64,000 nucleotides of DNA from an uncultured Ruminococcus sp. (GTDB taxonomy: Bacteria > Bacillota > Clostridia > Oscillospirales > CAG-272): positions 934-64,933 of the forward strand of contig CAZBQN010000005.1 in the NCBI GenBank assembly GCA_964494135.1, given 5' to 3'. Every line of letters begins with the position of its first letter. Within the stretch, counting starts at the first letter, position 1. The notes under the pieces are model-generated. The model had not been told where the DNA came from, searched no databases, and saw nothing but the letters and a program-made list of their open reading frames with translations. Positions 8,629 through 36,856 of the stretch are shown piece after piece. Made by a program: the position numbers and the translations under genes.

Positions 8629-8913
8629 TTTTTTCATTCCAATTATAATATTGTCAAAATATGAAGTAAGTTATCAACGCTAAAAGGCAATCGATAATTT
8701 GAGAGTAATCAATTTTACTAATCTACAAATCATCACAAACTTTTCGGGTGTCTGTAAGTATATCGATGCCGCCGTAAAAGCCTCCCTCCAAGAGGGAGCC
8801 CGAGTGCCATATGCAATCTTGATTGCATGGCGCACAGCCCCTACGGTACATACTGTGAGTAGAAAAGTGTAAAAATACGCAACCCCATTCATCTCAGCCT
8901 TAAAGCCGAGGAA

Positions 8914-8943
8914 CCCCGACAGAACTTCAAAAATCTGTCGGGG
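8914..8943. terminator. Hairpin between convergent genes (end of the dapL operon)
   Basis: CCCCGACAGA / TCTGTCGGGG perfect 10-bp stem. Confidence 0.6.
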
Positions 8944-9018
8944 CTAATTCTTTATTTATTGCGGAGCAAAAGGCGCGCGGCAGATTTCCGACCGGAAGAA
9001 CTGTAAGCCGACGGAAGC

Positions 9019-10206
9019 TTACCTTCCGAGCAGCTTCACCAGTCTCCTTGCCGCCTCCTTCGTGTCCTCGGGACTGCCAAAGGTGGAAAACCGGAAATAG
9101 CCCTCGCCGCACTTACCGAAGCCCTCGCCGGGCGTGCCTACGACCTGAATTTCACGAAGCAGGTAGTCGAAGAACTCCCAGCTTCCCATACCCCCCGGGC
9201 ACTTCATCCATATATAAGGCGCGTTCTTACCGCCGGTGTACCAGATGCCCAGCTCGTCAAGAGCCTCCATCAGGACCTTGGCGTTGTTTTTATAGACACG
9301 GATATTCTCCTTAATCTGCCTCTGTCCCTCGGGCGTAAAGACGGCGGCACCGCCCTTCTGGATAATATACGACACGCCGTTGGTTTTGGTGGTGCGGTTG
9401 CGCACCCACATTGAGTTAAAGCTCATACCGCACCTGCAAAGAGCCTTCGGGATAACGGTATAGCCGAGACGGGTACCCGTAAAGCCTGCGGTCTTTGACA
9501 GCGAGCATATCTCTATGGCGCAGGTCCTCGCTCCCTCAATCTCAAAGATGCTGTGAGGAATGCTCTCGTCCTCGATAAACGCCTCGTACGCCGCGTCGAA
9601 AAGGATAACCGAGCCGTGCGAATTGGCAAAGTCCACCCATCCTTTAAGCTGTGCACGGCTGAAGGTCGCGCCCGTCGGGTTGTTCGGCGAGCAGATGTAG
9701 ATTAAATCCGCCACCGCCCCCTCGTCGGGCTCGGGCAAAAAGCCGTTCTCCTTACCCGAAGCCAGATGAACGATCTCTCTGCCCGCGATAATATTGGCAT
9801 CCACGTACGCAGGGTACGCCGGCTCTATAACCAGAGCTGAACTTGATCTGTCGAACAGGTCAAGGATGTCGCCCAGCTCGTCGCTGGCTCCGCTGGAGAC
9901 AAAGACCTCGTCGGGGTCAAGCAGGACGCCGCGCGCCTCGTAATGCTTCGCAATAATCTCGCGGAGAAAGCCTGCTCCGCACTCGGGCATATATCCGTGA
10001 AAGGACTCCTTTTTCGCCTGGTCATCCACGCCCCCGTGCAGAGCCGTGATAACGCTGTCGCACAAAGGCAGGGAAACGTCGCCGATGCCCATTTTGTACA
10101 GATGCTTATCCGGATGCTCCTTCAGGTACTGCGAAAGCTTTGCGGATATTCCCGCGAAAAGGTAGGAATCCTTCAGATTTGCGTAATTCATATTAGGTGT
10201 AATCAT
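9019..10206 (-). CDS. dapL: LL-diaminopimelate aminotransferase
   Basis: MGIGDVSLP, CSPNNPTGA, FDAAYEAFI, SLSKTAGFTGTRLG (PLP Lys), GTPGEGFG. Adjacent to dapF. Confidence 0.93.
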   Translation of the reverse strand: MITPNMNYANLKDSYLFAGISAKLSQYLKEHPDKHLYKMGIGDVSLPLCDSVITALHGGVDDQAKKESFHGYMPECGAGFLREIIAKHYEARGVLLDPDEVFVSSGASDELGDILDLFDRSSSALVIEPAYPAYVDANIIAGREIVHLASGKENGFLPEPDEGAVADLIYICSPNNPTGATFSRAQLKGWVDFANSHGSVILFDAAYEAFIEDESIPHSIFEIEGARTCAIEICSLSKTAGFTGTRLGYTVIPKALCRCGMSFNSMWVRNRTTKTNGVSYIIQKGGAAVFTPEGQRQIKENIRVYKNNAKVLMEALDELGIWYTGGKNAPYIWMKCPGGMGSWEFFDYLLREIQVVGTPGEGFGKCGEGYFRFSTFGSPEDTKEAARRLVKLLGR

Positions 10207-10994
10207 TCTATCGTATCTCCTTCGTAAACGAACTCACAGGGGCCCGTCATCAATACCGAATAATCGGGAAAGACAGTGATTTTCAGCGTGCCCCCGTCAA
10301 GATGAACCGAAATAGGCTCGCCGGGGTCGCAATAGCCCTTCTTTACCGCCGCCGCCGCAGAGGCGCAGGCTCCCGTGCCGCAAGCCATCGTAACTCCGCT
10401 ACCCCGCTCCCAGACGCGCATCTGCAATTCGCTCCTGTTCATCACTCTGACGAACTCCACGTTCACACCGCCCGGGAAAGCCTCGTGATGCTCAATGACG
10501 GGTCCCAGAGCCGTCAGGGGGGCTGTTTCCATATTATCTGTGAAAATTACCGCGTGGGGATTTCCTACCGAAACCGGCGTACACTCGACACGGGTGCCGC
10601 CTGCGGTAAGTGTCATATCCTCCGAGGGCACTGCGGTGCCCATATCTACGGTAACGCTCCTGACCTTACCGAAGCTTATGCCGAGATCGAGGGTTTTTAT
10701 TCCCGACAAGGTTTCCACGGTCAGTCTTCTTTTATCGGTATAGCCCTTGTCGTAAACGTATTTGCCTACGCAACGAATACCGTTGCCGCACATTTTTGCC
10801 TCGCTGCCGTCGGCGTTGAAAATCCGCATCCTGAAGTCGGCAACCTCCGAGGGGGATATATAGATCATACCGTCAGAGCCTGCGCCGAAGTGCCTGTCGG
10901 AGAGCTTTATTGATAATTCCTCTATATTGTCAGGGACCTCACCGAAAACATACAGATAGTCGTTTCCGAGGCCGTGCATCTTCGTAAAATGCAT
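10203..10994 (-). CDS. dapF: Diaminopimelate epimerase
   Basis: MHFTKMHGLGNDY, MCGNGIRC, VGNPH, ERGSGVTMACGTGA. Start set at 10994 (RBS AAGGAG). Confidence 0.95.
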   Translation of the reverse strand: MHFTKMHGLGNDYLYVFGEVPDNIEELSIKLSDRHFGAGSDGMIYISPSEVADFRMRIFNADGSEAKMCGNGIRCVGKYVYDKGYTDKRRLTVETLSGIKTLDLGISFGKVRSVTVDMGTAVPSEDMTLTAGGTRVECTPVSVGNPHAVIFTDNMETAPLTALGPVIEHHEAFPGGVNVEFVRVMNRSELQMRVWERGSGVTMACGTGACASAAAAVKKGYCDPGEPISVHLDGGTLKITVFPDYSVLMTGPCEFVYEGDTIE

Positions 10995-11079
10995 TTTTAA
11001 TTCTCCTTTTCGTATAGACGGGAGCAAGTATTTTTCATACCTTCAAAAGCCATATTGCCCCCGTCGCTTCTACCGTGCC

Positions 11080-14000
11080 TCATTTGGCATCAATCGTGGA
11101 AATGCCCATTGTAACCTCTTCAAGGACGTCAAGAAGCATTCTGACAGTATCAAGAGAGGTGAGCATAGTGATATTGTTCTGTGCGGCGAGACGGCGGATT
11201 GCCACACCGTCACCGAAATGCTTACCCGACAGAATAGCACGGGTATTTATAACGTAGCTGACGTACCCCTGTCTCAAAGAATCCAGCACTTCCTCACTGC
11301 CCTCGCTGGGCTTATGGAGAAGTCTTGTGCGTATGCCGTGCTCCTTCAGGTACTGCGCGGTCACCGTAGTTGCTTCGATATTGAAGCCCATATTGTAAAA
11401 TCTGCGCACTAAAGGAAGCGTCTCCGCCTTATCCTCGTCGGCAACGCTTACCAACACGGTGCCGTAATTGCGGAGCTTCAGCCCGGAGGCAATCATCGCT
11501 TTGTACATCGCTCGGTGAAGCTTTTTGTCGTAGCCTATCGCCTCGCCGGTCGATTTCATTTCCGGGGACAGGTAGGCATCCATACCGCGGAGCTTTGAGA
11601 AGGAGAAGGCAGGTGCCTTTACGTAATAGCGTTTTTTCTCATCGGGATAAATATCGAATATTCCCTGCTCTGCAAGCGAAACGCCCAAATTAACCATAGT
11701 CGCAATGTCGGCAAGGCTGTAGCCCGTGGCTTTGGACAGGAAGGGCACGGTTCGCGAGGAGCGCGGATTTACCTCTATTATATACACGTCGTCGTGCTCG
11801 TCGACGATAAACTGAATATTGTAAAGTCCTATAATGCCTATCCCAAGCCCCAGCTTTTTGGTATAATCCAAAATCGTGGCCTTCACTCTGTCGGAGATCG
11901 AAAATGTGGGATATACGCTGATAGAGTCGCCCGAATGGATACCAGTCCTCTCAACCAGCTCCATAATACCGGGGACGAAAACCCGCTTGCCGTCGCATAT
12001 AGCGTCGACCTCGACCTCCTTGCCCTTTATATATTTGTCAACCAGCACCGGCTTGTCCTCGTCAATCTCAACGGCGGTTTTCAGATATTCCCTGAGGGCT
12101 TCTTCCTTTGCAACTATCTGCATGGCTCTGCCTCCGAGAACGAAGCTGGGGCGGACGAGCACGGGATAACCAATCTCCGCCGCTGCCTGAACGCCGGCTT
12201 CAATATTCGTCACGGCTCTGCCCTTGGGCTGAGGTATATTCAAATCGGACAAAAGCTTTTCAAACGCATCGCGGTTTTCAGCCTTCTCTATGGCGTCGCA
12301 GTCGGTGCCGATGATTTTCACGCCCCGCTGTGCCAGAGGCTCTGCCAGATTGATGGCCGTCTGACCGCCCAGGGTGGCAATTACTCCCTCCGGTTTTTCA
12401 AGAGCTATGACGTTCATTACGTCCTCGACGCACAGAGGCTCGAAATAGAGCTTGTCAGAGCAGGTGTAATCGGTGGACACGGTTTCCGGGTTATTGTTTA
12501 TGATAATTGCCTCGTAGCCTGCCGCCTTGATTGTCTTGACCGCATGAACGGTGGAATAATCGAACTCCACGCCCTGTCCTATACGGATGGGACCCGAGCC
12601 CAGCACGACGACCTTCTTTTTGTCCGAAACCCGGGACTCGTTTTCCTCCTCGTAGGTGGAATAAAAGTACGGAATATAGCTCTCAAACTCGGATGCGCAG
12701 GTGTCTATCATCTTATATACCGGGAAAATACCGTGCTCCCCGCGCAGCTTGTAAATCTCGGTTTCCTCCCTGCCCCAAAGATATGCAATCTCCTTGTCCG
12801 AGAAGCCCATTTTCTTCGCTTTTCTCAACACGGGTACCGAGTCTTTGCCCTCGGCTATCTCTTTCTCCGCATCGACGATGTTCTTGAGCTTGCGGATGAA
12901 AAGCATATCGATCGCGGTTACGGACGCAATCCTTCCCGCGTCAACACCGCGGCGCAAAAGCTCGGCTATGGCGTAAATGCGGTCGTCTGTACCGATCTTT
13001 ATATACTCCAAAAGCTCGGAGTCCGGAGCACTGTCGAACTTGCGGTTATAGAGATGGTAAAGCCCTATTTCCAAAGAGCGTATGGCTTTGAGCAGGCTCT
13101 CCTCTACCGTGCGTCCGATGCTCATTACCTCTCCCGTCGCCTTCATCTGCGTAGAGAGCGAATTGTTCGCGTCAGCAAACTTGTCGAAGGGAAACCTTGG
13201 CATCTTCGTGACCACGTAGTCAAGGGTTGGCTCAAAGGACGCGGGGGTGTTGGCAATCCTGATTTCGTCAAGCGTCATACCAACGCCGATTTTCGCGGAA
13301 ACTCTCGCTATCGGGTAACCGCTCGCCTTCGATGCCAGGGCGGAAGAGCGCGAAACACGGGGATTTACTTCTATGAGATAATACCGGAAGGAATAAGGGT
13401 CAAGGGCAAACTGCACGTTACAGCCCCCCTCGATCTTCAACGCGCGGATGATCTTCAGCGCGCTGTTCCTCAGCATGTGATACTCCTTGTTCGTCAGCGT
13501 CTGAGAGGGACAGACGACTATGGAGTCGCCGGTATGGATGCCCACCGGATCAATATTTTCCATATTGCATATAGTAATGGCGGTGTCGTTTTTGTCGCGC
13601 ATTACCTCGTATTCTATTTCCTTAAAGCCCTTTATGCTCTTTTCTATCAGCACCTGCCCTACGGGAGAGAGCGACAGGGCGTTTTTCATAAGGGGTACAA
13701 ATTCTTCCTCGTTGTCGGCAAAGCCGCCGCCCGTACCGCCGAGAGTAAAGGCGGGGCGAAGCACTACGGGATATCCGATTTTCTCTGCTATTTTCAACCC
13801 CTCGTCCACACCGTGTGCAATATCCGAGGGAAGCACCGGCTCGCCCAGCTGCTCACACAGCTCCTTAAAAAGCTCTCTGTCCTCGGCGCGCTCAATAGAC
13901 TCACTGCCCGTACCGAGAAGCTCTACACGGCACTCTCTGAGTATTCCCTTCTTCTCAAGTTGCATGGCAAGGTTAAGTCCCGTCTGACCTCCGATACCGG

Positions 14001-14262
14001 GCAGAATTGCATCCGGACGCTCGTAGCGAATTATCTTGGCGATGTATTCAAGGGTCAGAGGCTCCATATACACCTTGTCGGCTATTGAGGTATCCGTCAT
14101 AATGGTAGCGGGGTTGGAGTTGCACAGCACTACCTCGTAGCCCTCCTCTTTCAGGGCGAGGCAAGCCTGTGTGCCGGCGTAGTCGAATTCCGCCGCCTGA
14201 CCTATGACGATAGGTCCGGAGCCAATAACGAGAACCTTTTTTATGTCAGTTCTTTTAGGCAT
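11080..14262 (-). CDS. carB: Carbamoyl-phosphate synthase large subunit
   Basis: [21 protein letters not shown], duplicated ATP-grasp halves, [11 protein letters not shown]-terminal MGS domain. Confidence 0.98.
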
Positions 14263-15348
14263 TGTTCTTTTCCCCTTCCATTATCCCTATGAATTTGTCA
14301 AACAAATACGAGCTGTCCTCCGGTCCCGGAGCGCTTTCGGGATGATACTGCACGCTGAAAATTTTATCCTCACGGCACTCTACACCCTCCACCGTTCCGT
14401 CAAGAATGTTGATATGTGTCGGCGTCAGCCTCGTTGCCCCAAGGCTTTCAAGGTCTACCGCATAGGAGTGATTCTGAGAGGTGATCTCTATTTTGTCGGT
14501 CTCGAGATTGCGCACGGGGTGGTTGCCGCCTCTGTGTCCGAACTTCAATTTATAGGTTTTAGCACCGTATGCCAGCGAAATTACCTGATGTCCGAGGCAA
14601 ATGCCGAAGATAGGGTATTTTCCTCTGATAGCCCTTACCGTTTTGATAACCGGCTGCACGTCTTTCGGGTCGCCCGGTCCGTTTGAGATAAATACTCCGT
14701 CGGGTGACAGACGTTCTATCTCTTTGGCAGGCGTGTTCCACGGAACGACGGTTACGGAACATCCGCGTCTATTCAGCGAGCGGATAATATTCTCTTTCAT
14801 ACCGCAATCAATGGCGACGACATGGTATTTCTCCATCGGAACCCGGGAATAGCGTATGCTTTTACAGCTGACACGGGACACGGCGTCGGTGGGTACGGCG
14901 GCATTCCTTAAAATTTCCAGCCCCTCTTCGAGCGAGGTGTCAACTCCCGTAATCAATACTTTACGTGAGCCGAGGTCGCGTATGGAGCGTGTCAGCTTTC
15001 TCGTATCAATCCCCCACACTCCGGGGATACCGTACTTCTTCATCACCTCGTCAAGGGTTGCCGTGCTTCTGAAGTTTGAGGGCTCGTCGTTATACTCCCT
15101 TACTATCAGCGCGCCTATGGTGGGCGTGCCGGTCTCGTAGTCGTCGTCGCAGACGCCGTAATTGCCAATCAAAGGATAGGTCATTACCACCGCCTGATAG
15201 GTGTAGGACGGGTCGGAGAGTATCTCCTGATAGCCTACCATAGAAGTATTGAAAACTATCTCCAGGACCCTATCGGAGCTGTCGCCGAAGCCGAAGCCCG
15301 TATACTCCTCGCCGTTTTCCAAAATTATCTTTCTGTTGTAGTTTTCTG

Positions 15349-15352
<4 letters not shown>
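14255..15352 (-). CDS. carA: Carbamoyl-phosphate synthase small subunit
   Basis: [31 protein letters not shown]. Confidence 0.97.
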
Positions 15353-20001
<4,649 letters not shown>

Positions 20002-20009
20002 TATTCACC

Positions 20010-21425
20010 TCAGATATTTATATCGGCATGGCTTTCGGCAATTCCGTCAAGCAGAGGCTTTACCTTCGCGAGAAAGGCGTCGACCTGCTCGGGACATCTG
20101 CCTATATATTTGTCCGGTATAAGAAGCGAATTTATCTCTTCTTCTGTCATACCGAAGGCGGGCTCGGCAGCCAGCCTTGCCGTCAGGTCGCACTCCTCGC
20201 CGTCTTTCATTCTTGCGGTGGCCTCCATTGAGCATTTACGGATGAGCTCGTGTATCTTTTGTCTGTCCCCGCCCCGCTTTACCGCCTCCATCATCAGGTT
20301 CTCCGTAGCGATGAAGGGCAGATATTCCCTGACGGTTTTATCGACTATCCTTTCGTTGACGTGAAGTCCGTCGGTAACGTTCTGACAGAGTCTCAGCACG
20401 GCGTCGGCGCACAGGAAGCCCTCGGGCAGAGAGATACGGCGGTTTGCCGAATCGTCAAGCGTTCTCTCCAACCACTGGACCGAGGCGGTCATGGGCGCGT
20501 TAGCGGCGTCAGCCATCAGGTATCTGGAAAGCGAGCATATACGCTCGCTCCTCATGGGATTGCGCTTATACGCCATGGCAGAGGAGCCTATCTGATTTTT
20601 CTCAAAGGGCTCCTCAAGCTGTCTGTCGTGCTGTAAAAGCCGAATATCGTTTGCCATTCTGTACGCGCTCTGCGCTACCGAGGACAGGACGTTAAGTATT
20701 CTCGAATCCACCTTTCTCGGATAGGTCTGCCCCGACACATCAAAGCATTCGTCAAAGCCGAAGTCACGGCAGATGAGCCGATTCATCTCGTCAATTTTTG
20801 AGCCGTCGCCGTCAAAAAGCTCAAGGAAGCTTGCCTCGGTTCCGGTTGTTCCGCGACAGCCGAGGAATTTTATATTTTCTGTCGCAAAGTCTATCTCCCG
20901 AAGGTCGGACAAAAAGTCCTGCATCCACAGCGTCGCGCGCTTGCCCACCGTCACCGGCTGTGCCGGCTGATAATGAGTATAACCCAAGGTGGGCGTGCTC
21001 TTGTATTTTTCCGCGAACCTTGAAAGGTTCAAAAGCACGCCCAGAAGCTCGCCCCTCAGATATCTGAGGGCGTCGCGGTAGATGATAAGGTCGGCGTTGT
21101 CGGTGACGTAACAGCTGGTGGCGCCGAGGTGAATGATGCCCGCGGCTGAGGGTGCTGCCTTGCCGTAAGCGTAGACATGTGCCATAACGTCGTGTCTGAC
21201 TTCCTTTTCACGCTCAGCCACGCACTCGTAGTCAATGTCGTCCGTGTGAGCCTCCAGCTCCTTTATCTGCTCCTCTGTGATGGGAAGACCCAAGGCGCGC
21301 TCTGCCTTTGCGAGAGATACCCAGAGCCTGCGCCAGGTGCCGAAGCGTGTATCGGCGGAAAACAGCTTCAGCATATACTCGGACGCGTAGCGCGAGGACA
21401 GAGGAGATTCGTATTTGTTCGTCAT
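20010..21425 (-). CDS. purB: Adenylosuccinate lyase
   Basis: RHDVMAH, THYQPAQ, GSSAMAYKRNPM. Confidence 0.96.
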   Translation of the reverse strand: MTNKYESPLSSRYASEYMLKLFSADTRFGTWRRLWVSLAKAERALGLPITEEQIKELEAHTDDIDYECVAEREKEVRHDVMAHVYAYGKAAPSAAGIIHLGATSCYVTDNADLIIYRDALRYLRGELLGVLLNLSRFAEKYKSTPTLGYTHYQPAQPVTVGKRATLWMQDFLSDLREIDFATENIKFLGCRGTTGTEASFLELFDGDGSKIDEMNRLICRDFGFDECFDVSGQTYPRKVDSRILNVLSSVAQSAYRMANDIRLLQHDRQLEEPFEKNQIGSSAMAYKRNPMRSERICSLSRYLMADAANAPMTASVQWLERTLDDSANRRISLPEGFLCADAVLRLCQNVTDGLHVNERIVDKTVREYLPFIATENLMMEAVKRGGDRQKIHELIRKCSMEATARMKDGEECDLTARLAAEPAFGMTEEEINSLLIPDKYIGRCPEQVDAFLAKVKPLLDGIAESHADINI

Positions 21426-21472
21426 AATTTACTCCTTTTTCGTTTCCGTCTGCGTTCCTTTGCGCACACCTG

Positions 21473-22747
21473 TCAGCGTATGATTATGCTGTCGCGCTCA
21501 GGACCTACGGAAATATATTTTATGGGGCAGCCGATCTCTTTTTCAATGAACAGAACGTATCTCCTTGCCGCCTCGGGAAGCTCCTCCCAGCTGCGGACAC
21601 CGCTGACGTCGCACCTCCAACCGTCGAAATATTCGATAACCGGCTTTGCACTATCAAGAGCTGTCGGGAAGGGGAAGTAATCTGTCTCCTCGCCGTCAAC
21701 GAGGTACTTCGTGCATACGGGGATTTTGTCCATATACGACAGCACGTCAAGCTTTGTCAGCGCAATCGCCGTTGCCGCCTGAACCTCTACTCCGTACCTC
21801 GTCGCCACGATGTCAATAGGTCCGACCCGGCGGGGTCTGCCCGTCTTTGCTCCGTACTCGGCACCTGCCGCACGAAGCGCCTCGGCTTCTTCCCCGAACA
21901 TCTCACATACAAATGGACCTTCGCCCACGCAGGTGGAATAAGCCTTCACCACGCCTACGACGTCGTCGATTTTCGCTCCGGGCAGACCCGAGCCTATGGG
22001 CGCGTACGCCGCTATGGTACTCGACGAGGTGGTATAGGGGTAAATTCCGTAATCTATATCGCGCAGTGAGCCCAGCTGTGCTTCAAACAAAATGCTCTTG
22101 CCCTCAGTGGCTGCCTCACCGAGAAATTTGCCCGTATCGCATACGTAAGGCTTGATTTTCTCGCAGGCATCACAAATCCAGCTCTCCAGCATTTCCACGG
22201 TATAGGGTCTTGCACCGTACACCCGGGTCAAGGTCAGATTTTTCCATTCGAGAAGATCCGCAAGGTGTGCCCTCAGCTTCTCGGGATAGAACAGCTCGCC
22301 CGCAAGCACCGTCTTCTTCTGATACTTGTCCGAATAGAAGGGAGCTATGCCCTGCTTCGTTGAGCCGTACTTTTTATCCGCCAGTCTTTCCTCCTCAAGG
22401 GCGTCAAGCTCTCTGTGCCAAGGGAGAAGAAGCGAGGCTCTGTCGCTGATTTTAAGGTTGTCCGGGGTAATAGCAACTCCCTGTGACGTAACCTGTCCCA
22501 TTTCGGCAAGAAGGTTCTCGGGGTCAAGAGCAACCCCGTTCCCGAGAATATTGACGACTCCCTTTCTGAAAATTCCCGAGGGGAGAAGATGCAATGCGAA
22601 TTTTCCGTATTCGTTTATTACCGTGTGGCCTGCGTTTCCGCCTCCCTGGTAACGGATTACCACGTCGTAAGCCTCGGTGAGCAGGTCGACCATTCTGCCT
22701 TTTCCCTCGTCACCCCAGTTGATTCCGACAATTGCACAGTTTGACAT
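21473..22747 (-). CDS. purA: Adenylosuccinate synthetase
   Basis: WGDEGKG, GGGNAGHT, DYGIYPYTTSS, TGRPRR, LTKLDVL. Confidence 0.97.
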   Translation of the reverse strand: MSNCAIVGINWGDEGKGRMVDLLTEAYDVVIRYQGGGNAGHTVINEYGKFALHLLPSGIFRKGVVNILGNGVALDPENLLAEMGQVTSQGVAITPDNLKISDRASLLLPWHRELDALEEERLADKKYGSTKQGIAPFYSDKYQKKTVLAGELFYPEKLRAHLADLLEWKNLTLTRVYGARPYTVEMLESWICDACEKIKPYVCDTGKFLGEAATEGKSILFEAQLGSLRDIDYGIYPYTTSSSTIAAYAPIGSGLPGAKIDDVVGVVKAYSTCVGEGPFVCEMFGEEAEALRAAGAEYGAKTGRPRRVGPIDIVATRYGVEVQAATAIALTKLDVLSYMDKIPVCTKYLVDGEETDYFPFPTALDSAKPVIEYFDGWRCDVSGVRSWEELPEAARRYVLFIEKEIGCPIKYISVGPERDSIIIR

Positions 22748-22768
22748 ATCAACTATCCTTTCCCCGTT

Positions 22769-23482
22769 TTATATATTGTCCGTCAGGCGTTTCATAACCT
22801 CGGCGTAAGCGTCCTCGACACCTCCAAGGTCTCTGCGGAAGCGGTCCTTGTCCAGCTTCTGTCCCGTCTTTATATCCCACAGACGGCAGGTGTCGGGGCT
22901 TATCTCATCGGCGAGAACTACATCCCCGCCTGACAGCTTTCCGAACTCCAGCTTGAAATCAACGAGAGTTATGCCGCAGGATTTCCAGAAGGCTTTTAGC
23001 TCGTCGTTTACCGTAAAGGAGTACTTTTTGATAATTTCGATCTCCTCTCCGGTTGCAAGACCCAAAGCCAGAGCGTGATATTCGTTCAGGAGCGGGTCGC
23101 CCAGCTCGTCGTTCTTATAGGAAAACTCAATAGTCGGAGAAGCAAATACTATACCCTCTTCCACGCCGTATCTCTTTGCAAAGGAGCCTGCCGAGACGTT
23201 TCTGATAATGACCTCAAGCGGGACTATGGAAACCTTTTTGACCAAGGTTTCTCTGTCGCTCAGCTCCTCGACGTAGTGGGTGGGGACGCCGGCTTTTTCA
23301 AGCCTTTGCATGAGCAGATTACTCATTCTGTTGTTGATAACACCCTTGCCTGCAACAGTGCCTTTTTTCAGTCCGTTGAACGCGGTGGCGTCATCCTTGT
23401 ACGACACGATAAGAAGCTCCGGGTCATCGGTGGCAAAGACCTTTTTCGCCTTCCCCTCGTACAGCTGTTCTCTCTTTTCCAT
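22769..23482 (-). CDS. purC: SAICAR synthetase
   Basis: LYEGKAK, PLEVIIRN, LVDFKLEFG, LADEISPDTCRLWD, LDKDRFR. Confidence 0.97.
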   Translation of the reverse strand: MEKREQLYEGKAKKVFATDDPELLIVSYKDDATAFNGLKKGTVAGKGVINNRMSNLLMQRLEKAGVPTHYVEELSDRETLVKKVSIVPLEVIIRNVSAGSFAKRYGVEEGIVFASPTIEFSYKNDELGDPLLNEYHALALGLATGEEIEIIKKYSFTVNDELKAFWKSCGITLVDFKLEFGKLSGGDVVLADEISPDTCRLWDIKTGQKLDKDRFRRDLGGVEDAYAEVMKRLTDNI

Positions 23483-23509: not shown

Positions 23510-23593
23510 TAAACAAAAATAAAAGCGGACAATCGGCACCGACAAAAACGAACGTATCATCTACGCCCGTCAAATCGGAAGACGCCATTGCCC
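23510..23593 (-). promoter_or_regulatory. ANTAR-type hairpin plus terminator in the purC leader
   Basis: GGC-AATGGC-GTC (23592-23581). GGGCAATGGC can instead pair with GCCGATTGTCC (23537-23527), which is followed by GCTTTTATTTTTG. Confidence 0.75.
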
Positions 23594-23603
23594 TCACGCG
23601 ATT

Positions 23604-23632
23604 ATTATACACGCGCGGAGCTTGTTTGTCAA
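23604..23632 (-). promoter_or_regulatory. sigma-A promoter of the purC operon
   Basis: TTGACA-N17-TATAAT. Confidence 0.9.
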
Positions 23633-23644
23633 CAAAAAAATAAA

Positions 23645-23703
23645 TAAAAAAACAAAAAAACAAAACGGATACAGACAAGGAGAAAATCCCGGTCTACACC
23701 CGT
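23645..23703 (-). terminator. Intrinsic terminator after asnB
   Basis: ACGGGTGTAGAC / GTCTGTATCCGT stem, followed by a long T tract. Confidence 0.75.
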
Positions 23704-23769
23704 TTTTCACATCAAAATCCAAAACAAAGTCTTTGTTTTTAACCGACGACCACCGGTATCGGTCAATTA

Positions 23770-25353
23770 TTATTTTCCGCTGTCGCCGTAGTTGGAAAGT
23801 ACTCTTGCCGACGGGTCGTTTACGTTACAGCCCTCCCAGGTTTTGTTGGGCATCCAGAAGTCTGCGACCATCTGTGACTGACCGGGATAATACTTCTCAA
23901 ATATCTCCCGATACAAGAGCGATTCTTTGGTAAAGGGGGAGGCGTGTACGTATTTCTTGCGTTTTTCCTCAAATTCCCCGTCGGTATATTTGCTCTCGGC
24001 GTACTCCTTCAGATAGTCAACCATAGAGTGTCCGACGGCATCCGAGAACGCCGCCTTCTCACGAAAGAGTATTTCGTCGGGCAGATAACCGCCATCCTCA
24101 AAGGCATGGCGAAGCAGGTACTTACCCTTGCCGTATTTGTTCATCTTGAGCTCCGGGTCAATGCTCATGACGTATCTGACGAAATCCAGATCGCCGAAGG
24201 GCACTCTGGCCTCCAGAGAGTTTACGGAAATACAGCGGTCTGCGCGGAGCACGTCGTACATATGAAGCTCCCGCACCCGCTTCTGCGACTCGCGCTGAAA
24301 TTCCGCGGCGCTCGGCGCGAAATCGGTATATTTATACCCGAACAGCTCATCCGAAATCTCACCGGTAAGAAGCACTCGAATGTCGGTTCTCTCATGGATA
24401 GCTTTACAGATAAGATACATACCCATGCTTGCTCTTATAGTGGTAATATCGTAGGTGCCGAGAAGCTCAATTACCCCCTCCAGCGAGGACAAAACCTCAT
24501 CCGGTGTCATATAAATCTCGGTATGGTCGCTGCCTATGTAGTCAGCAACCTGCTTTGCGTATTTGAGGTCAATCGCGTCCTCGCTCATACCTATGGCAAA
24601 GGTTTTTATGGGAGTTTTGCTCTTTCTCTGCGCTATGGCGCAAACCAGGGATGAGTCCAGCCCTCCGGATAGGAGAAATCCCACCTTCGCGTCTGCGACA
24701 AGGCGTTTTTCAACGCCCGAGATCAGCTTGTCGTGTATTTTGCGGCACACCGCGTCAAGTCCGTCGCCGCTGACCTTATCAACCGCCGCAATATCGGTAT
24801 AGCGGATAAACTCACCGCCTTTGTAGTAGCATCCGGGAGGAAAGGGCAGGATTTTTTCGACTATTCCTACTAAGTTCTTAGGCTCGCTGGCAAAAACGAT
24901 TACCCCTTTTTCGTCATAACCGTAGTACAGAGGCCGGATACCTATCGGGTCTCTTGACGCAATATATTCCTTATTCTCGCCGTCGTATATGATAAGGGCG
25001 TATTCCGCGTCAAGCATACCGAACATATCCGTGCCGTACTCGCGGTACATTGGCAGCAGTATTTCGCAGTCGCTGTCGCTTGAGAAGGTATAGCCTTTTT
25101 TCTTCAAGTCCTCGCGGATTTTCTCAAAGCCGTAGATTTCACCGTTGCATACAACGTAATCCGAGCCGAGGCGAAAGGGCTGCATACCCTCGGGGGTCAA
25201 GCCCATAATTGCCAGGCGGTGAAAACCGAGCAAGCCGGCACCCGTGTCAGCTAATTTACTGTCATCGGGACCTCTGGATACCGTGCGCCCGAAGGATGTG
25301 ACAAATTTGTCAATATCGGTACATTCACCGCAGTAGCCTATGATTGAACACAT
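23770..25353 (-). CDS. asnB: Asparagine synthase B (glutamine-hydrolysing)
   Basis: Starts MCSIIG (Ntn Cys2). RGPD, HRLAI, NGEIY, LSGGLDSS, EARVPF. Confidence 0.95.
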   Translation of the reverse strand: MCSIIGYCGECTDIDKFVTSFGRTVSRGPDDSKLADTGAGLLGFHRLAIMGLTPEGMQPFRLGSDYVVCNGEIYGFEKIREDLKKKGYTFSSDSDCEILLPMYREYGTDMFGMLDAEYALIIYDGENKEYIASRDPIGIRPLYYGYDEKGVIVFASEPKNLVGIVEKILPFPPGCYYKGGEFIRYTDIAAVDKVSGDGLDAVCRKIHDKLISGVEKRLVADAKVGFLLSGGLDSSLVCAIAQRKSKTPIKTFAIGMSEDAIDLKYAKQVADYIGSDHTEIYMTPDEVLSSLEGVIELLGTYDITTIRASMGMYLICKAIHERTDIRVLLTGEISDELFGYKYTDFAPSAAEFQRESQKRVRELHMYDVLRADRCISVNSLEARVPFGDLDFVRYVMSIDPELKMNKYGKGKYLLRHAFEDGGYLPDEILFREKAAFSDAVGHSMVDYLKEYAESKYTDGEFEEKRKKYVHASPFTKESLLYREIFEKYYPGQSQMVADFWMPNKTWEGCNVNDPSARVLSNYGDSGK

Positions 25354-25420
25354 ATTTAAAGCCTCCAAAGTACTGTATGCCGACGGAGCAAACATCCGTC
25401 GGCATTGATGTTTCTATAAA

Positions 25421-27163
25421 TTATTCCACATCCTGAAGTGCGTCGTAGCCTTCTTCTCCGGTACGAACCTTCACGACGTTTTCAATATCGTAAACGAAAA
25501 TCTTGCCGTCACCGATATGTCCGGTGTAAAGGGCCTTCTTTGCCGTTTCTATAACCTCGCGGACGGGTACCTTGCTGACGACGATGTCAACCTGTACCTT
25601 CGGCAAAAGATTTGCCTCCACGGGGACTCCGCGGTAGTATTCGGGCTTACCCTTCTGCATACCGCAGCCGAGAACGTGGGATACCGTCATTCCGGTAATG
25701 CCTATGCCCATCATTGCCGTTTTCAGAGTTTCAAGCCTTGCTTCCTTGCATATAATCTCAACCTTGGTGAACTTATGCGCCCCTTCTGCAAAGGAAGGAA
25801 CTTTCTTCACCGGAACAGCCTCTGCCGCGGGAACCTCGCCTGCAACAACCGTTGCCCCCTCGTAGCCGTAATCAACACTCTCAACTGCGGGAACAAAGTC
25901 AGCGTACGCGCTGGGAAGACCGTGCTCGGTAAGGTCAAGACCCTTAATCTGTTCTTCGTCGGATGCGCGAAGACCGATTGTTTTCTTGATTATAAAGAAT
26001 ACGAGAGTGATAGTAGCCGCAGTCCATGCGAGAATTGCAAGGATACCTACGAGCTGCTTGCCGAAAAGCTCAAAGCTTCCGGTATAGAAAAGACCGTTAA
26101 GACCTGCGGGAGCGGCAGGGTTTGCCAAAAGACCTACTGCCAGAGTACCCCATACACCGTTGACGAGGTGTACGCCGACAGCACCCACGGGGTCGTCTAT
26201 ATGAAGCTTCAAATCGAGAACCTCAACCGCGACGACGACGAGTATTCCCGAAACAACGCCGACGACTATTGAGCCGAGAGCATCAAGGGCGTCACAGCCT
26301 GCGGTAATACCGACAAGACCTGCCAGGGATGCGTTAAGGCACATCGACACGTCGGGCTTGCCGTTCTTAATCCAAGTGAAGAGCAAAGTAGTACAGGTGG
26401 CGACCGCGGGAGCAATTGTGGTAGTCAGGAATATAGATGCGAGCATGGAGCCGTCGGTTGCCGCCGCGCCGTTGAAGCCGTACCAGCCGAACCAGAGAAT
26501 AAAGCAGCCAAGGGCGCCGAGAGTAACCGAGTGGCCGGGAATTGCGTTGACCTTAGTCACCTTGCCCGTCGCCTTATCCTTGACGTACTTTCCGATTCGT
26601 GGACCGACCATAATGGCACCGATAAGAGCCATAAGACCGCCGACAGAGTGAATAGCGGCAGAGCCTGCGAAATCGTGAAAGCCCCACTGCGCGAGCCAGC
26701 CGTTCGGGTTCCACACCCAGCCTGCCTCAATAGGATAAATTACCAGTGAAATCACTGCGGAATAAACGCAGTATGATATGAACTTCGTTCTCTCCGCCAT
26801 AGCTCCCGATACTATCGTAGCAGCGGTAGCGCAGAACACGAGATTGAATACGAAGCTGGAAGCGTTCGTCTGAATAAAGCCGCCGAAGTCGGCGAATATA
26901 TTCATATTCGGAACGCCGATAATTCCGAGAACATAGTCCTCCGCCATCATAAGGCTGAAGCCCAAAAGCACGAACACAACCGTACCGATGCAGAAGTCCA
27001 TCAGGTTCTTCATAATGATGTTTCCCGCATTCTTCGCGCGGGTAAATCCGGTTTCAACCATAGCAAAGCCGGCTTGCATAAAGAACACGAGAGCTGCTCC
27101 TATCAGGAACCAGACGCCGAACACCTCTTCGCCTACCAGCTTAATAACATCAGATTCAAGCAT
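25421..27163 (-). CDS. amtB: Ammonium transporter fused to a C-terminal P-II domain
   Basis: Amt motifs FMQAGFAMVE, DFAGSAAIH and DDPVGAVGVH. P-II tail GMQKG...YRG...LLPK...TGHIGDGKIFV...VRTGE. Confidence 0.93.
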   Translation of the reverse strand: MLESDVIKLVGEEVFGVWFLIGAALVFFMQAGFAMVETGFTRAKNAGNIIMKNLMDFCIGTVVFVLLGFSLMMAEDYVLGIIGVPNMNIFADFGGFIQTNASSFVFNLVFCATAATIVSGAMAERTKFISYCVYSAVISLVIYPIEAGWVWNPNGWLAQWGFHDFAGSAAIHSVGGLMALIGAIMVGPRIGKYVKDKATGKVTKVNAIPGHSVTLGALGCFILWFGWYGFNGAAATDGSMLASIFLTTTIAPAVATCTTLLFTWIKNGKPDVSMCLNASLAGLVGITAGCDALDALGSIVVGVVSGILVVVAVEVLDLKLHIDDPVGAVGVHLVNGVWGTLAVGLLANPAAPAGLNGLFYTGSFELFGKQLVGILAILAWTAATITLVFFIIKKTIGLRASDEEQIKGLDLTEHGLPSAYADFVPAVESVDYGYEGATVVAGEVPAAEAVPVKKVPSFAEGAHKFTKVEIICKEARLETLKTAMMGIGITGMTVSHVLGCGMQKGKPEYYRGVPVEANLLPKVQVDIVVSKVPVREVIETAKKALYTGHIGDGKIFVYDIENVVKVRTGEEGYDALQDVE

Positions 27164-27267
27164 ATTATATCACCTCTTTATAGTTGTCTTTTGCGTTCAA
27201 TCCCGAAAAGCACGCCTTTCGGCAGTTTCCAAACTGCGCACATTCGGGATTTACTTATGTACTTAAA

Positions 27268-29364
27268 TTATTTTACCGAATAAAGCAGATCTCCGTAGGT
27301 GGGGAAGGGCCAGTATTCGGACGCGGTTACCGTCTCCGCCTCGTCACAGGCTACACGAAGCTCGCTCATAGCGGGGATAAGCAGGTCACGGACAGCATCC
27401 GCCTCCTCGCCTATCTCACCCTTTCCGGATACCTCAACCAGAACGCTCTCCAATTTGTCTGTGTTAACGGCAATTCTGTCGCAAAGGGCTGACAGCTTCT
27501 TTACCGTAGCCTTTTCGTAGCCGCAAGATATACCCGAGTCGAGCTGTATCTTCTTCTGTGCGTTTGCCGCCAGGTCGCTGGTATACGCCGCAACGGCGGG
27601 AAGGATCTGACGTCTGGACATTGAAGCCATGGTATTTGCCTCGATTATAACCGCCTTGCAGTAGTTCTCCAGAGTTATCTCGTAACGGGACTTCAGCTCC
27701 GCCTCTGTGAATATGCCGTGAGAGGTGAGCATCCTCACGTTCTTTTCGTCCAGCAGATGAGGCAGACAGTCTGGGGTCGTGCGATAATTGCAAAGACCTC
27801 TCTTTTCGGTCGCTTCCTTGATCCAGGAATCGTCGTAGCCGTTGCCGTTGAAAATAATTCTGCCGTGCTCCTTGATCGTTTCCTTTATCATCTCGTGCAG
27901 CTCACCCTCAAAGTCGGATGCGCCCTCAAGACGGTCGGCATATACCTTCAGCGACTCGGCAACCGCGGCGTTGAGCATGATGTTGGCGCAGGCGATGCTG
28001 TTGGACGAGCCGAGCATACGGAATTCGAACTTATTGCCGGTAAACGCAAAGGGAGAGGTACGGTTACGGTCGGTAGTATCTCTGTTGAATTTAGGAAGGA
28101 CGTCAACTCCCAGCTTCATCTGAGTCTTTGTTGCTCCGCTGTAGGGCGTGTCGTTTTTAATTGCCTCAAGAACGCCGTTCAGCTCGTCGCCGAGGAATAT
28201 AGATACCACAGCGGGAGGTGCCTCGTTTGCACCCAGACGGTGGTCGTTTCCTGCGGTGGCAACAGAAATTCTGAGAAGATCCTGATAATCGTCAACCGCC
28301 TTGATAACCGCGCAGAGGAAAAGCAAAAACTGTGCGTTCTCATAAGGGGTCTCGCCGGGAGAGAGCAGATTCTGTCCGCGGTCGGTGGCAATGGACCAGT
28401 TGTTGTGCTTACCGCTTCCGTTTACGCCTGCAAAGGGCTTCTCGTGAAGCAGGCATACAAGACCGTGCTTCAGGGCAACCTTCTGCATAATCTCCATAGT
28501 CAGCTGGTTATGGTCGGTAGCGATGTTGGTAGTGGAATAGATAGGTGCCAGCTCGTGCTGTGCGGGAGCAACCTCGTTGTGCTCGGTCTTTGCAAGCACG
28601 CCCAGCTTCCACAGCTCCTCGTTCAGCTCCTCCATATACGCCGCGACACGGGGCTTTATTACACCGAAATAGTGGTCATCCATCTCCTGTCCTTTAGGGG
28701 GCTTTGCACCGAAGAGGGTACGACCCGTGTAGACTAAATCACGTCTTTTCTCGTACATTTCACGGTCGACGAGGAAGTACTCCTGCTCGGGTCCGACAGA
28801 GCTGGTAACACGCTTCACATTAGTCTTGCCGAACAGCTTAAGTATGCGGAGCGCCTGCACGTTGAGTGCCTCCATGGAACGGAGCAAGGGCGTCTTCTTG
28901 TCAAGGGCCTCGCCGCCAAAGGAGCAGAACGCCGTGGGAATACAAAGCGTCTTTCCTTTAATAAAGGCAAAGGACGTAGGGTCCCAAGCGGTGTAGCCTC
29001 TCGCCTCGAAGGTAGCGCGTAAGCCACCCGAGGGGAAGGAGGACGCATCAGGCTCACCCTTGATAAGCTCCTTGCCCGAAAACTCCATAATGATACCGCC
29101 GTCGGGAGCAGGAGAGATAAAGCTGTCGTGCTTCTCTGCCGTAACGCCCGTCAAAGGCTGAAACCAGTGGGTGTAATGGGTCGCGCCCTTACTTACCGCC
29201 CAATCCTTCATTGCAGCGGCAACCGCGTTTGCAACGGTCAGATCCAGCTCCTTGCCCTCGTCGATAGTCTTTTTGAGGGAGGCGTAAACCTTACTGTCAA
29301 GGGTCGACTTCATTACTCTGTCGTCAAAAACCAAGCTGCCAAACATTTCTTTAACTTTTTCCAT
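27268..29364 (-). CDS. glnN: Glutamine synthetase type III
   Basis: [58 protein letters not shown]. 698 aa. Confidence 0.95.
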
Positions 29365-29410: not shown

Positions 29411-29457
29411 AAAAACGGCGCCTCTCCTGCTTAATCCGCAAGAAAGACGCCTTTGCC
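29411..29457 (-). promoter_or_regulatory. Second ANTAR-type hairpin plus terminator in the GSIII leader
   Basis: AAGGC-AAAGGC-GTCTT. GGCGTCTTTCTTGC pairs with GCAGGAGAGGCGCC, followed by GTTTTT. Confidence 0.8.
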
Positions 29458-29523
29458 TTTTCTTCTATTTATTAATTAAATGCACTGCAAAGATAAATTG
29501 ACACAAAAGACTGCCACAAGTGT

Positions 29524-29581
29524 GAAAATCAGAAAGGGCAAGGGACTTTTTGGATTTACCAATCTAAGACGCCCTTGCCTT
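29524..29581 (-). promoter_or_regulatory. First ANTAR-type hairpin plus terminator in the GSIII leader
   Basis: AAGGC-AAGGGC-GTCTT. GGCAAGGG pairs with CCCTTGCC, followed by CTTTCTGATTTT. Confidence 0.75.
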
Positions 29582-29591
29582 TACGCGACTC

Positions 29592-29620
29592 ATTATACAC
29601 CCCGAAAAACCGTTTGTCAA
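29592..29620 (-). promoter_or_regulatory. sigma-A promoter of glnN-amtB-asnB
   Basis: TTGACA-N17-TATAAT. Confidence 0.9.
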
Positions 29621-29710: not shown

Positions 29711-29722
29711 GCTTGCATATAT

Positions 29723-29786
29723 GAGCAAAGGCGTTCATAGATAGCGGCGACTGCCGTTTTTTCGTGAGCCTTTGCTCTTTTCGTTT
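29723..29786 (+). promoter_or_regulatory. ANTAR-type hairpin plus terminator in the GOGAT leader
   Basis: GAGC-AAAGGC-GTTC. GAGCAAAGGC pairs perfectly with GCCTTTGCTC (29768-29777), followed by TTTTCGTTT. Confidence 0.8.
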
Positions 29787-29808
29787 ATGAAAGGCAACGG
29801 TTACTATT

Positions 29809-30903
29809 ATGTTAAAAGAAGGTCAGATACGTATTCCCTCCGGATGCGCCATTGCCGCCGTAATATCAAAGGACGGCGAAAGAATGTCGGGCAGACAGAT
29901 AATCGAGGCAATGAAGCCTATGCACGACCGCTCAAACGGCTTGGGCGGCGGCTTTGCCGCTTACGGCATTTATCCGGAATATAAAGACTTTTATGCTCTC
30001 CACTTTTTCTTTGACGACCGAAATACGAGAAAAAACTGCGAGGTATTCTTAAAGGAAAGATTTGAGATTGTGAAATCCGAGATAATTCCCACGAGGAAAA
30101 TCCCCGCAATCACCGACGAGCCGGTCATCTGGAGATACTTCGTCGCCCCTCTGCGCTCGGTGCTTGACTCGGCACAGCTGGACGAAAAGGAATTCGTCGT
30201 GCGCACGGTAATGAAGATAAACACCGAGATGCCCGGAGCTTACGTATTTTCAAGCGGAAAGAACATGGGCACCTTCAAGGCGGTGGGCTTCCCCGAGGAC
30301 GTAGGCGAATTTTACAGACTGGACGAATACGAGGGCTATTCCTGGACTGCCCACGGCAGATATCCCACCAACACCCCCGGCTGGTGGGGCGGCGCGCACC
30401 CTTTCACTCTGCTTGACTATTCCATTGTTCACAACGGAGAAATATCCTCCTACGACGCCAACAGAAGACATATCGAAATGTTCGGCTACAAGTGCAATCT
30501 TCAAACCGATACCGAGGTCATAACCTACATATTTGATTATCTGGTGCGCGTGCAGGGGCTTACTCTGTCCGAGGCGGCAAGCGTCGTCGCCGCTCCCTTC
30601 TGGAGCACTATCGAGAACAAGAGCGATCTTGATGACAAGAAGAAGCATATTTTCCTGCGCACGCTCTTCCCGGGTCTTCTCGTCACCGGACCCTTTTCCA
30701 TCGTCCTCGGCTACGACGGAGGTCTTATGGCACTGAACGACCGCCTGAAGCTGCGCTCAATGGTAGTAGGCGAGTGTGACGACAAGGTGTATATTGCAAG
30801 CGAGGAAGCCGCCATTCGGGTAATGGAGCCGAACGTGAAAAGCATCTGGGCACCGGCAGGCGGCGAGCCGGTTATCGTAAAAGTTAAGGAGGGCTGTTTC
30901 TGA
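29809..30903 (+). CDS. Class II glutamine amidotransferase domain of a split glutamate synthase (GltB1-like)
   Basis: Short propeptide then SG-C-AIAA, DRSNGLGGG, AHGRYPTNT, AHPF, VHNGEI, DRLKLR. Confidence 0.85.
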   Translation: MLKEGQIRIPSGCAIAAVISKDGERMSGRQIIEAMKPMHDRSNGLGGGFAAYGIYPEYKDFYALHFFFDDRNTRKNCEVFLKERFEIVKSEIIPTRKIPAITDEPVIWRYFVAPLRSVLDSAQLDEKEFVVRTVMKINTEMPGAYVFSSGKNMGTFKAVGFPEDVGEFYRLDEYEGYSWTAHGRYPTNTPGWWGGAHPFTLLDYSIVHNGEISSYDANRRHIEMFGYKCNLQTDTEVITYIFDYLVRVQGLTLSEAASVVAAPFWSTIENKSDLDDKKKHIFLRTLFPGLLVTGPFSIVLGYDGGLMALNDRLKLRSMVVGECDDKVYIASEEAAIRVMEPNVKSIWAPAGGEPVIVKVKEGCF

Positions 30904-32408: not shown

Positions 32409-32553
32409 GGCGAAAAAAGTTATACAAGCCCGAACCCTTTTAATCAGCCGCAAGTGCCTTTAAAGGAAAACATAAACCTTTGTTGTCAAATAACTTGACA
32501 CGGGCCCCGGCATCGGCAAAGGTGCGTGCGGTATCAGGAGGAATATCAAAGGA

Positions 32554-32997
32554 ATGAAGCGAATATATGTAAATGAAAAATGGTGTCTCGGATGTCACCT
32601 GTGTGAATACAACTGTGCATTTGCAAACTCGGGGCTCTCCGACATGTCAGCGGCACTGAAGGGTAAGCCCATCTACCCCAGAATACACATTGAGGGAGAC
32701 GAGAGGGTTTCCTATGCGGTTTCCTGCCGTCACTGTACCGACCCAATATGTCAGAAAAGCTGTATTGCGGGCGCGATAACGGCAGAGGACGGAGTGGTGC
32801 GCATCAACAAAAGCAAGTGCGTGGGCTGTCACACCTGCGTTCTCGTCTGCCCCTACGGTGCGCTGGCAGCCTCCCCCGAGGGAGTTATGCAGAAATGCGA
32901 GCTGTGCCTGAAGAACAGCTGCGGTGAGCCCGCATGTGTCAAGGGCTGTCCCAACAACGCCATCGTATATGAGGAAAGGGGTGAAGAAAATGGCTGA
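32554..32997 (+). CDS. 4Fe-4S dicluster protein (CooF/HydN-like)
   Basis: CLGCHLCEYNC, CRHCTDPICQKSC, CVGCHTCVLVCPYG, KCELC...PACVKGCP. Confidence 0.9.
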   Translation: MKRIYVNEKWCLGCHLCEYNCAFANSGLSDMSAALKGKPIYPRIHIEGDERVSYAVSCRHCTDPICQKSCIAGAITAEDGVVRINKSKCVGCHTCVLVCPYGALAASPEGVMQKCELCLKNSCGEPACVKGCPNNAIVYEERGEENG

Positions 32998-34959: not shown

Positions 34960-34980
34960 GAAAACAGGAGATACGGAAAG

Positions 34981-36195: not shown

Positions 36196-36233
36196 CCACG
36201 GGGCACGGTATTTTATGAAAGGAGGGGTAAAGC

Positions 36234-36818: not shown

Positions 36819-36856
36819 TACAAGAAAAATATATTCATAAAGCAAGGACCTATAAA

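Follow-up and report, generated by a model that had tools for sequence, protein, structure and literature searches.

The DNA analyzed here is a window of 64,000 nucleotides (nt) from an uncultured Ruminococcus sp., a gut member of the Clostridia (contig C5, positions 934-64933, of a 1.77-Mb genome in 34 contigs), and the subject is an operon of ten biosynthetic genes that runs along the minus strand from position 23482 down to 9019 in the order purC-purA-purB-guaA-pyrG-purF-carA-carB-dapF-dapL. All ten genes were identified by NCBIfam matches above the curated cut-offs. The operon opens with purC (22769..23482; SAICAR synthase, TIGR00081, 252 bits; the only close copy in the genome) and purA (21473..22747; adenylosuccinate synthase, NF002223, 486 bits), both of which draw nitrogen from aspartate, and purB (20010..21425; adenylosuccinate lyase, TIGR00928, 370 bits), which completes both of these transfers; purA and purB are single-copy. 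The next genes spend the amide nitrogen of glutamine: guaA (18469..20001; NF000848, 757 bits) encodes a full-length, glutamine-hydrolyzing GMP synthase with a glutamine amidotransferase (GATase) domain (PF00117), pyrG (16781..18403; NF003792, 833 bits) CTP synthase, and purF (15349..16791; TIGR01134, 507 bits) an amidophosphoribosyltransferase, here the second copy in the genome. They are followed by carA (14255..15352; TIGR01368, 459 bits), the glutaminase subunit of carbamoyl-phosphate synthase and the only carA in the genome (a PF00117 census found no other), and by a second copy of carB, the large subunit (11080..14262; NF003671, 1494 bits). The last two genes are partners: dapF, diaminopimelate epimerase (10203..10994; TIGR00652, 286 bits), and dapL, LL-diaminopimelate aminotransferase (9019..10206; TIGR03542, 478 bits against a cut-off of 364.7), which takes its amino nitrogen from glutamate.

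Two of the start codons were moved. The pyrG start is now placed at the ATG at 18403 (ribosome-binding site GAGGAG, protein starting MTKYIFV), the NF003792 match beginning at residue 26 of the longer open reading frame, and the dapF start at the ATG at 10994 (ribosome-binding site AAGGAG). After these corrections the intergenic gaps range from -8 to +86 nt. The original prediction had described a co-oriented, tightly packed block next to an asnB gene and had proposed that it is organized by nitrogen donor instead of by pathway; the description holds for the block itself, all of it on the minus strand, and for asnB, which lies upstream on the same strand (23770-25395). The block is confirmed as a genuine feature whose arrangement goes beyond chance, since the GATase domains of the genome are concentrated here and genes of this class are found again next to guaA in relatives (both described below).

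Boundaries and leader of the operon

The sole 12/12 match to a sigma-70 promoter on the minus strand between 8400 and 24000 (TTGACA-17-TATAAT, 23604..23632) lies upstream of purC. Internal matches reach 10/12 at most and fall in coding sequence (inside purA, at the start of carA and inside carB), and a sequence scan of the intergenic gaps of the block found no terminator-like sites. A terminator-like hairpin follows dapL (8913..8945, minus strand; 12-bp stem, weak U-run, -23.2 kcal/mol, z -4.85), and at the other end an intrinsic terminator with a 15-bp stem and a long U-run (23640..23706, minus strand; z -5.3) follows asnB. The promoter and terminator calls come from consensus scans, which are weak evidence; on these calls purC-dapL is predicted to be a single bounded transcription unit, and the internal promoters that the original prediction had named as a possible objection do not appear to split it. 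The block would be separate from the glnN-amt-asnB unit upstream, given the strong terminator behind asnB and a separate promoter and attenuator for purC. The single nitrogen-responsive promoter proposed earlier was rejected for asnB and the block together, which appear to have two promoters.

The purC leader contains an attenuator (23511..23595, minus strand; fold -33 kcal/mol, z -3.25) in which a first hairpin, P1 (GAGGGC[AAUGGC]GUCUUC, 23595-23578), overlaps the 5' arm of a terminator whose 3' arm lies at 23540-23527 and whose U-run lies at 23526-23511. Control of the operon would accordingly be exerted after initiation, by attenuation. The Rfam gathering search of the window returned only a Gut-1 RNA and no riboswitch, and on this search a purine, ZTP, glutamine or T-box element controlling the purC operon was rejected.

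The same type of element stands before other units. The purC operon forms a nitrogen cluster of about 29 kb (9019-38185) with the glnN unit upstream of it and a divergent unit that encodes glutamate synthase (GOGAT). In the glnN leader (29411..29620, minus strand) a promoter (TTGACA at 29620-29615, TATAAT at 29597-29592) is followed by two tandem attenuators of the purC-leader type, called from sequence, folds and motif count. The attenuator of the GOGAT-glnA-ANTAR-lysA unit (29720..29795, plus strand) has the P1 sequence AUGAGC[AAAGGC]GUUCAU and a 10-bp terminator plus UUUUCGUUU (z -3.47), and its P1 stem differs from those of glnN and purC by compensatory changes. In the whole genome of 1.77 Mb the 14-mer GGCAANGGCGTCTT has exactly three copies, two in the glnN leader and one in the purC leader, each located a few bases past a consensus promoter. 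A fold-based scan of the genome found one further site beyond the window, a fifth attenuator, before gdhA on contig C7; genome-wide, the combination of hairpin and terminator is found only at the glnN (twice), GOGAT-glnA-ANTAR, purC and gdhA units. In all four window leaders (4/4) and in the gdhA leader, the P1 sequence doubles as the 5' arm of a stem that ends in a U-run, so that in the folds hairpin and terminator are mutually exclusive by construction.

Among 33 leaders from this genome and its relatives, the closing C-G pair and the loop positions A1 and G4 are invariant, and five of the seven pairs of the P1 stem show double-sided changes. The number of covarying cells in P1 is 41, compared with 16±3 in shuffles (0 of 500 shuffles reached 41), and slid controls collapse. 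In relatives the leader directly precedes units that start with guaA, asnB, glmS, pyrG, glnN, glnA or gdhA. This pattern matches the published rule for recognition by ANTAR proteins, in which a hexaloop hairpin bearing A1 and G4 forms in competition with a terminator; the predicted ANTAR targets are mostly nitrogen genes (PMC3369931), and NitR-type ANTAR control of glutamine synthetase (GS) and GOGAT is assumed in clostridia (PMC4676874). Because the purC leader shares its conserved element with the glnN, GOGAT-glnA-ANTAR and gdhA leaders, nitrogen-linked control would be the best reading for the purC operon as well.

The leader could instead be a constitutive 5' stem, a stability element or the target of some other factor, in which case the operon would be expressed constitutively, with its genes grouped for stoichiometry or for sharing pools of glutamate, glutamine and fumarate. 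Characterized ANTAR targets carry two hexaloop hairpins (PMC3369931), whereas each site here has one clear AxxG hexaloop in place of the canonical pair: at the tips of the terminators the hairpin loops measure 4-7 nt, and most have no A1 and G4 (in one relative, L025, the apical loop is AACGGA). Such an explanation would also suit the Oscillospirales-like genomes described below, in which the genes are grouped and the leader is missing. We nevertheless give it little credence, as the element is confined to five nitrogen-related leaders in 1.77 Mb, its hairpin excludes the terminator and covaries while A1 and G4 stay fixed, and ANTAR and GS-like genes accompany the cluster in relatives.

The rest of the pathways and the grouping in relatives

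Pathway genes missing from the window were sought by whole-genome tblastn with E. coli proteins as queries, and the matches were checked with NCBIfam and Rfam. The purD/E/H/L/M/N and pyrB-F genes, correctly noted as absent from the window in the original prediction, were located on two other contigs. On contig C26 (2623-13655) a ZMP/ZTP riboswitch (65 bits) is followed by purE-purF2-purM-purN-purO-purH-purD-purL, in which purL is fused and PurL carries its own GATase domain; purF2 is 60% identical to the window purF. With purC and purB missing from this operon, the de novo purine pathway is divided between one operon under ZTP control and another that appears to be under ANTAR-type control. 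Contig C4 (4570-13267) carries pyrC-carB2-pyrK-pyrD-pyrF-pyrE-pyrB, without carA. The full-length carB2 is 71% identical to the window carB, and since the sole carA is in the window operon, CarB2 must either borrow the CarA of that operon or use ammonia directly. The argG and argH genes are on contig C10 and the trp operon is on C17. Found only in the window operon were purC, purA, purB, full-length guaA, pyrG, carA, dapF and dapL; the earlier suggestion that steps had been collected from their pathways fits these genes and does not fit purF and carB, which are extra copies of genes that the pathway operons have kept.

In a Pfam census of GATase domains, clear class I domains were found in trpG, carA, guaA and pyrG, three of the four within the operon, and class II domains in asnB, purF, a GOGAT subunit and purF2, three of the four within the operon or its immediate neighbors. 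The genome has at least ten users of glutamine amide, six of them in the 29-kb cluster and four of these in the purC operon. It also encodes a stand-alone protein of 333 residues corresponding to the C-terminal (ATP-pyrophosphatase) part of GMP synthase (contig C24, 6527-7462). The census found no GATase domain or subunit in the genome for this short GuaA, which may be an ammonia-dependent GMP synthase. A weak fifth class I match on contig C30 was set aside as a candidate glutaminase subunit for GuaA; its N-terminal sequence, by reading alone, resembles PdxT.

Two samples of relatives were compared. The first comprised 80 species-representative loci found through GuaA and mapped by tblastn; the second, which is less biased, comprised 101 genomes drawn evenly from 30 families of the window's order. 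About 40 of these 101 genomes have the short GuaA only and no pyrG, and in two (G015 and G036) the short GuaA directly adjoins the full-length guaA. The 60 genomes of the second sample with a full-length guaA formed a panel, in which the 10 kb on either side of guaA was mapped with 70-odd reference proteins, including this genome's own purE/M/N/O/H/D/L, pyrB-F/K, guaB, argG/H and trpE/G; same-strand genes with gaps of at most 600 nt were counted as a run.

In 35 of the 60 panel genomes guaA shares a run with other reference genes, in 23 distinct arrangements, and every one of the co-run genes (90/90) belongs to nitrogen assimilation, to nitrogen transfer, to the partner subunits of such steps or to the regulator pair. 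None of the runs with guaA at the 60 loci includes purD/E/H/M/N/O, guaB, pyrB-F/K, hisA/B/C/D/G/I, trp or argB/C. The commonest partner is purA (13/60), followed by asnB and glnN (10/60 each), purF (6/60), amt, pyrG, the GS-like gene and the ANTAR gene (5/60 each), glmS, purB and dapF (4/60 each), carA (3/60), carB, purC, dapL, hisH with hisF, and parts of GOGAT (2/60 each), and nadE (1/60). The hisH-hisF-guaA runs, in G067 and G041, contain no other his genes and are informative for that reason: of histidine synthesis, the amidotransferase step alone has come to lie with guaA. The control gene, purM, was found in 88 of the 101 genomes, always away from guaA. Of the 62 genomes with both pyrG and guaA, about 17, from at least eight families, have the two no more than 8 kb apart, and pyrG and purF adjoin each other in seven further genomes, with G003 and G059 also carrying a second purF beside purM, as here.

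The order of the genes is far from fixed, with at least 24 different arrangements around guaA among the relatives. Examples from the first sample are guaA-pyrG-purF-carA-carB-dapF-dapL, glnN-asnB-guaA-pyrG-carAB-dapFL, glnN-purA-glmS-purB-guaA-pyrG-carA, and glmS-purC-purA-purB-guaA followed by a second leader and pyrG-dapF-dapL. A group of Oscillospirales-like genomes (L032, L041, L043, L044 and L046) has (carB)-purC-purF-purB-purA-glmS-guaA, with a divergent gdhA in two of them, and neither an ANTAR-type leader nor an Rfam match was found upstream of these clusters. As this version lacks the leader, the grouping is independent of ANTAR control and is older or broader than the switch. The arrangement is not a chance order in one genome, since the class of genes recurs and their order is shuffled. 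The idea of organization by nitrogen donor is borne out for membership, which follows nitrogen transfer in the window and at the 60 panel loci, where the additional genes that have joined (glmS, hisH-hisF, nadE and asnB) are again nitrogen-transfer steps, and falls short for purL, trpG, pdxT and argGH, which lie outside.

These comparisons also bear on a simpler explanation, that stray branch-point nucleotide genes were merged in a small genome for promoter economy and that the nitrogen-donor pattern is a by-product, the branch-point steps being amidations. The classical operons of this genome do lack exactly these genes, the commonest pair in the panel consists of two purine genes (purA and guaA, in 13 of the 60), and the genomes of the order are small (1.3-3 Mb). 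A merger of this kind fails, however, to account for purC, or for a second purF and a second carB in the operon when the pathway operons keep theirs, or for the recurrent company of dapL/dapF, asnB, glmS, hisH-hisF, nadE, GS, GOGAT and amt, or for a leader that is otherwise common only to units of ammonia assimilation; and guaB, the usual partner of guaA, is adjacent in none of the 60. We consider it unlikely.

Another explanation is that the cluster is a mobile, "selfish" unit that has been transferred horizontally among gut Clostridia, with co-regulation secondary. The nearest matches to GuaA come from metagenome-assembled genomes labeled Clostridia, Christensenellaceae and Acutalibacteraceae, from goat, rabbit, pig and human gut, and this mixture of taxon labels would suit such transfer. 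The window GuaA, PyrG and PurF are 72-87% identical to those of other families, with lower identity within the family (58-60% for GuaA and 76-79% for PyrG), whereas the housekeeping gene purM is about equally distant to all families; and the G+C content of the cluster is 52-54%, compared with 48.4% for the genome. Conserved biosynthetic genes, however, commonly have a raised G+C content as well, the ten-gene block is not flanked by mobility genes, tRNA or repeats, the order within the cluster is reshuffled between relatives and not moved intact, and the conserved leader and regulator indicate selection on regulation. The divergence and composition of the cluster may have arisen by transfer, or the module may belong to an old paralogue lineage; mobility as the reason for the grouping seems to us quite improbable.

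The neighboring nitrogen genes

The unit upstream of the purC operon (23770..29364, minus strand) begins with glnN (27268-29364), a GSIII (PF12437/PF18318), continues with a gene for an Amt-PII fusion (25421-27163; PF00909+PF00543) and ends with asnB (NF006949). The Amt-PII protein is an ammonium transporter with a C-terminal PII domain in a single chain of 580 residues, and a comparable fusion is reported from Clostridium thermocellum (PMC4676874). A second GSIII paralogue of glnN, 55% identical to the cluster copy, lies on contig C1 (143012-145096), a few kb downstream of a thiamine pyrophosphate riboswitch, and the genome scan found no ANTAR-type leader there.

The divergent operon (29809..38185, plus strand; Pfam assignments) carries a four-gene split glutamate synthase, a GS-I-like gene (34981-36195), the gene for an ANTAR protein of 194 residues (36234-36818; PF03861, E 1.2e-17), which adjoins the GS-like gene, and a gene of the ornithine/diaminopimelate decarboxylase family (lysA, 36767-38185). 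In relatives the ANTAR gene and its GS-like neighbor travel together with the cluster. Downstream of the decarboxylase gene lies the Gut-1 RNA (RF01706; 38725-38800, minus strand), at 53 bits barely above its gathering score. On the other side of the purC operon, at 1197-6407 (minus strand), is a gene for an alpha-N-acetylglucosaminidase of 1736 residues with NAGLU N, TIM-barrel and C domains and four F5/8 type C domains, an enzyme that likely degrades host glycans of the mucin or heparan type.

Proposed nitrogen control and its place among known systems

Taken together, it seems probable that the ten genes form an operon grouped by the handling of nitrogen, set within a nitrogen cluster and governed by a shared ANTAR-type leader. 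On this reading, the members would be those that spend glutamine amide nitrogen (GuaA, PyrG, PurF, and CarA with CarB), aspartate nitrogen (PurC and PurA, with PurB) or glutamate amino nitrogen (DapL, with DapF), together with the obligate partners of such steps; the other steps of the pathways stay in classical operons under pathway-specific control, as with the ZTP riboswitch of the pur operon. Every unit of the cluster, and gdhA, opens with the conserved hairpin with its six-base AxxGxx loop, whose sequence also serves as the 5' arm of the terminator. When fixed nitrogen is short, a state probably sensed as glutamine by way of the adjacent GS-like protein, the ANTAR protein of the cluster would bind and stabilize this hairpin, blocking formation of the terminator and allowing read-through, so that GS, GOGAT, Amt and AsnB would rise jointly with the enzymes that spend the nitrogen of glutamine, aspartate and glutamate. 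At other times, basal read-through would keep purA, purB, pyrG and dapF/L expressed, which would be needed because these genes are essential and single-copy.

Several points weigh against this reading. Essential single-copy genes behind a terminator require leakiness or weak internal promoters. The window sequence was found in none of the RNA runs searched, only in DNA metagenomes, so that co-transcription, the response to nitrogen and the direction of regulation are all read from the DNA. Genome completeness is just 82%. The donor rule has gaps, with PurL, TrpG, PdxT and purF2 (glutamine) and ArgG/ArgH (aspartate) outside the cluster, and DapF, inside it, performs no nitrogen transfer itself. 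In many bacteria purA, purB, guaA, pyrG and carAB are found outside the main pur and pyr operons. The single hexaloop at each site and the leaderless Oscillospirales-like clusters, discussed above, belong on the same side.

The duplicated genes suggest divided control, in which one purF answers ZTP (folate and purine state) and the other nitrogen. A bolder version, which we regard as rather doubtful, is that the cluster is a switchable "glutamine mode": when ammonia is scarce the cell would use the versions of the enzymes that draw on glutamine, aspartate and glutamate, together with GS, GOGAT and Amt, and in an ammonia-rich gut the unpartnered CarB2 and the short GuaA would use free ammonia. 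On this version, the roughly 40% of sampled genomes that have only the short GuaA and no PyrG would point to gain and loss of the module as a whole, perhaps through transfer from one family to another.

Each element of this arrangement has known counterparts. In the classical operons of Firmicutes, pur genes are under a purine or ZTP riboswitch or PurR, and pyr genes are under PyrR. The window operon encodes the same enzymes as these, of which the genome has its own examples on C26 and C4, and differs from such pathway-sensing operons in taking the nitrogen-transfer steps of three or four pathways behind a leader of the nitrogen type. An uber-operon or supra-operon is a conserved neighborhood of linked operons with shuffled internal order; as in an uber-operon, membership is conserved here while order and operon boundaries vary, but the theme is a shared nitrogen-donor co-substrate and a riboregulator and not a pathway or a complex.

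The closest likeness is to the ANTAR nitrogen regulons. These too have an A1/G4 hexaloop hairpin that shares sequence with an intrinsic terminator, and a GS gene whose neighbor encodes an ANTAR protein with a receiver-like N-terminus; among their targets are GS, GOGAT, the ammonium transporter/PII and glutamate dehydrogenase. Such regulons include the targets of EutV, NasR and AmiR and are predicted in Desulfotomaculum and Pelobacter (Ramesh et al., 2012; PMC3369931), and NitR is found with glnA/GOGAT in solventogenic and cellulolytic clostridia (as cited in PMC4676874). ANTAR nitrogen regulons and nitrogen-assimilation clusters are thus known already. In contrast to the characterized targets, each site here has one clear hexaloop, with the hairpin at the extreme 5' end of the transcript, and the regulon reaches a ten-gene operon for purines, pyrimidines/arginine and diaminopimelate, whereas the 2012 survey lists no nucleotide genes (the word "purine" has 0 occurrences; PMC3369931). 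In the literature we found no account of amidation steps of purine, pyrimidine, diaminopimelate, hexosamine or histidine synthesis moved under such a leader.

Operons are normally explained by a pathway or a complex. Here the organizing unit, and probably also the regulatory unit, is a shared co-substrate, the nitrogen donor. If this is true, the ANTAR nitrogen regulon would extend to nucleotide synthesis, and gut Clostridia would set the amidation of nucleotides and cell wall by nitrogen status through an RNA antiterminator, in parallel with the riboswitch control by pathway of the remaining steps and the duplicate isozymes. Hundreds of uncultured genomes could then be annotated by one simple rule. 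Cultured Christensenellaceae with a related glnN-asnB-guaA-pyrG arrangement offer experimental access to what would be a testable model of how scarce glutamine is shared out in ammonia-dependent gut anaerobes.

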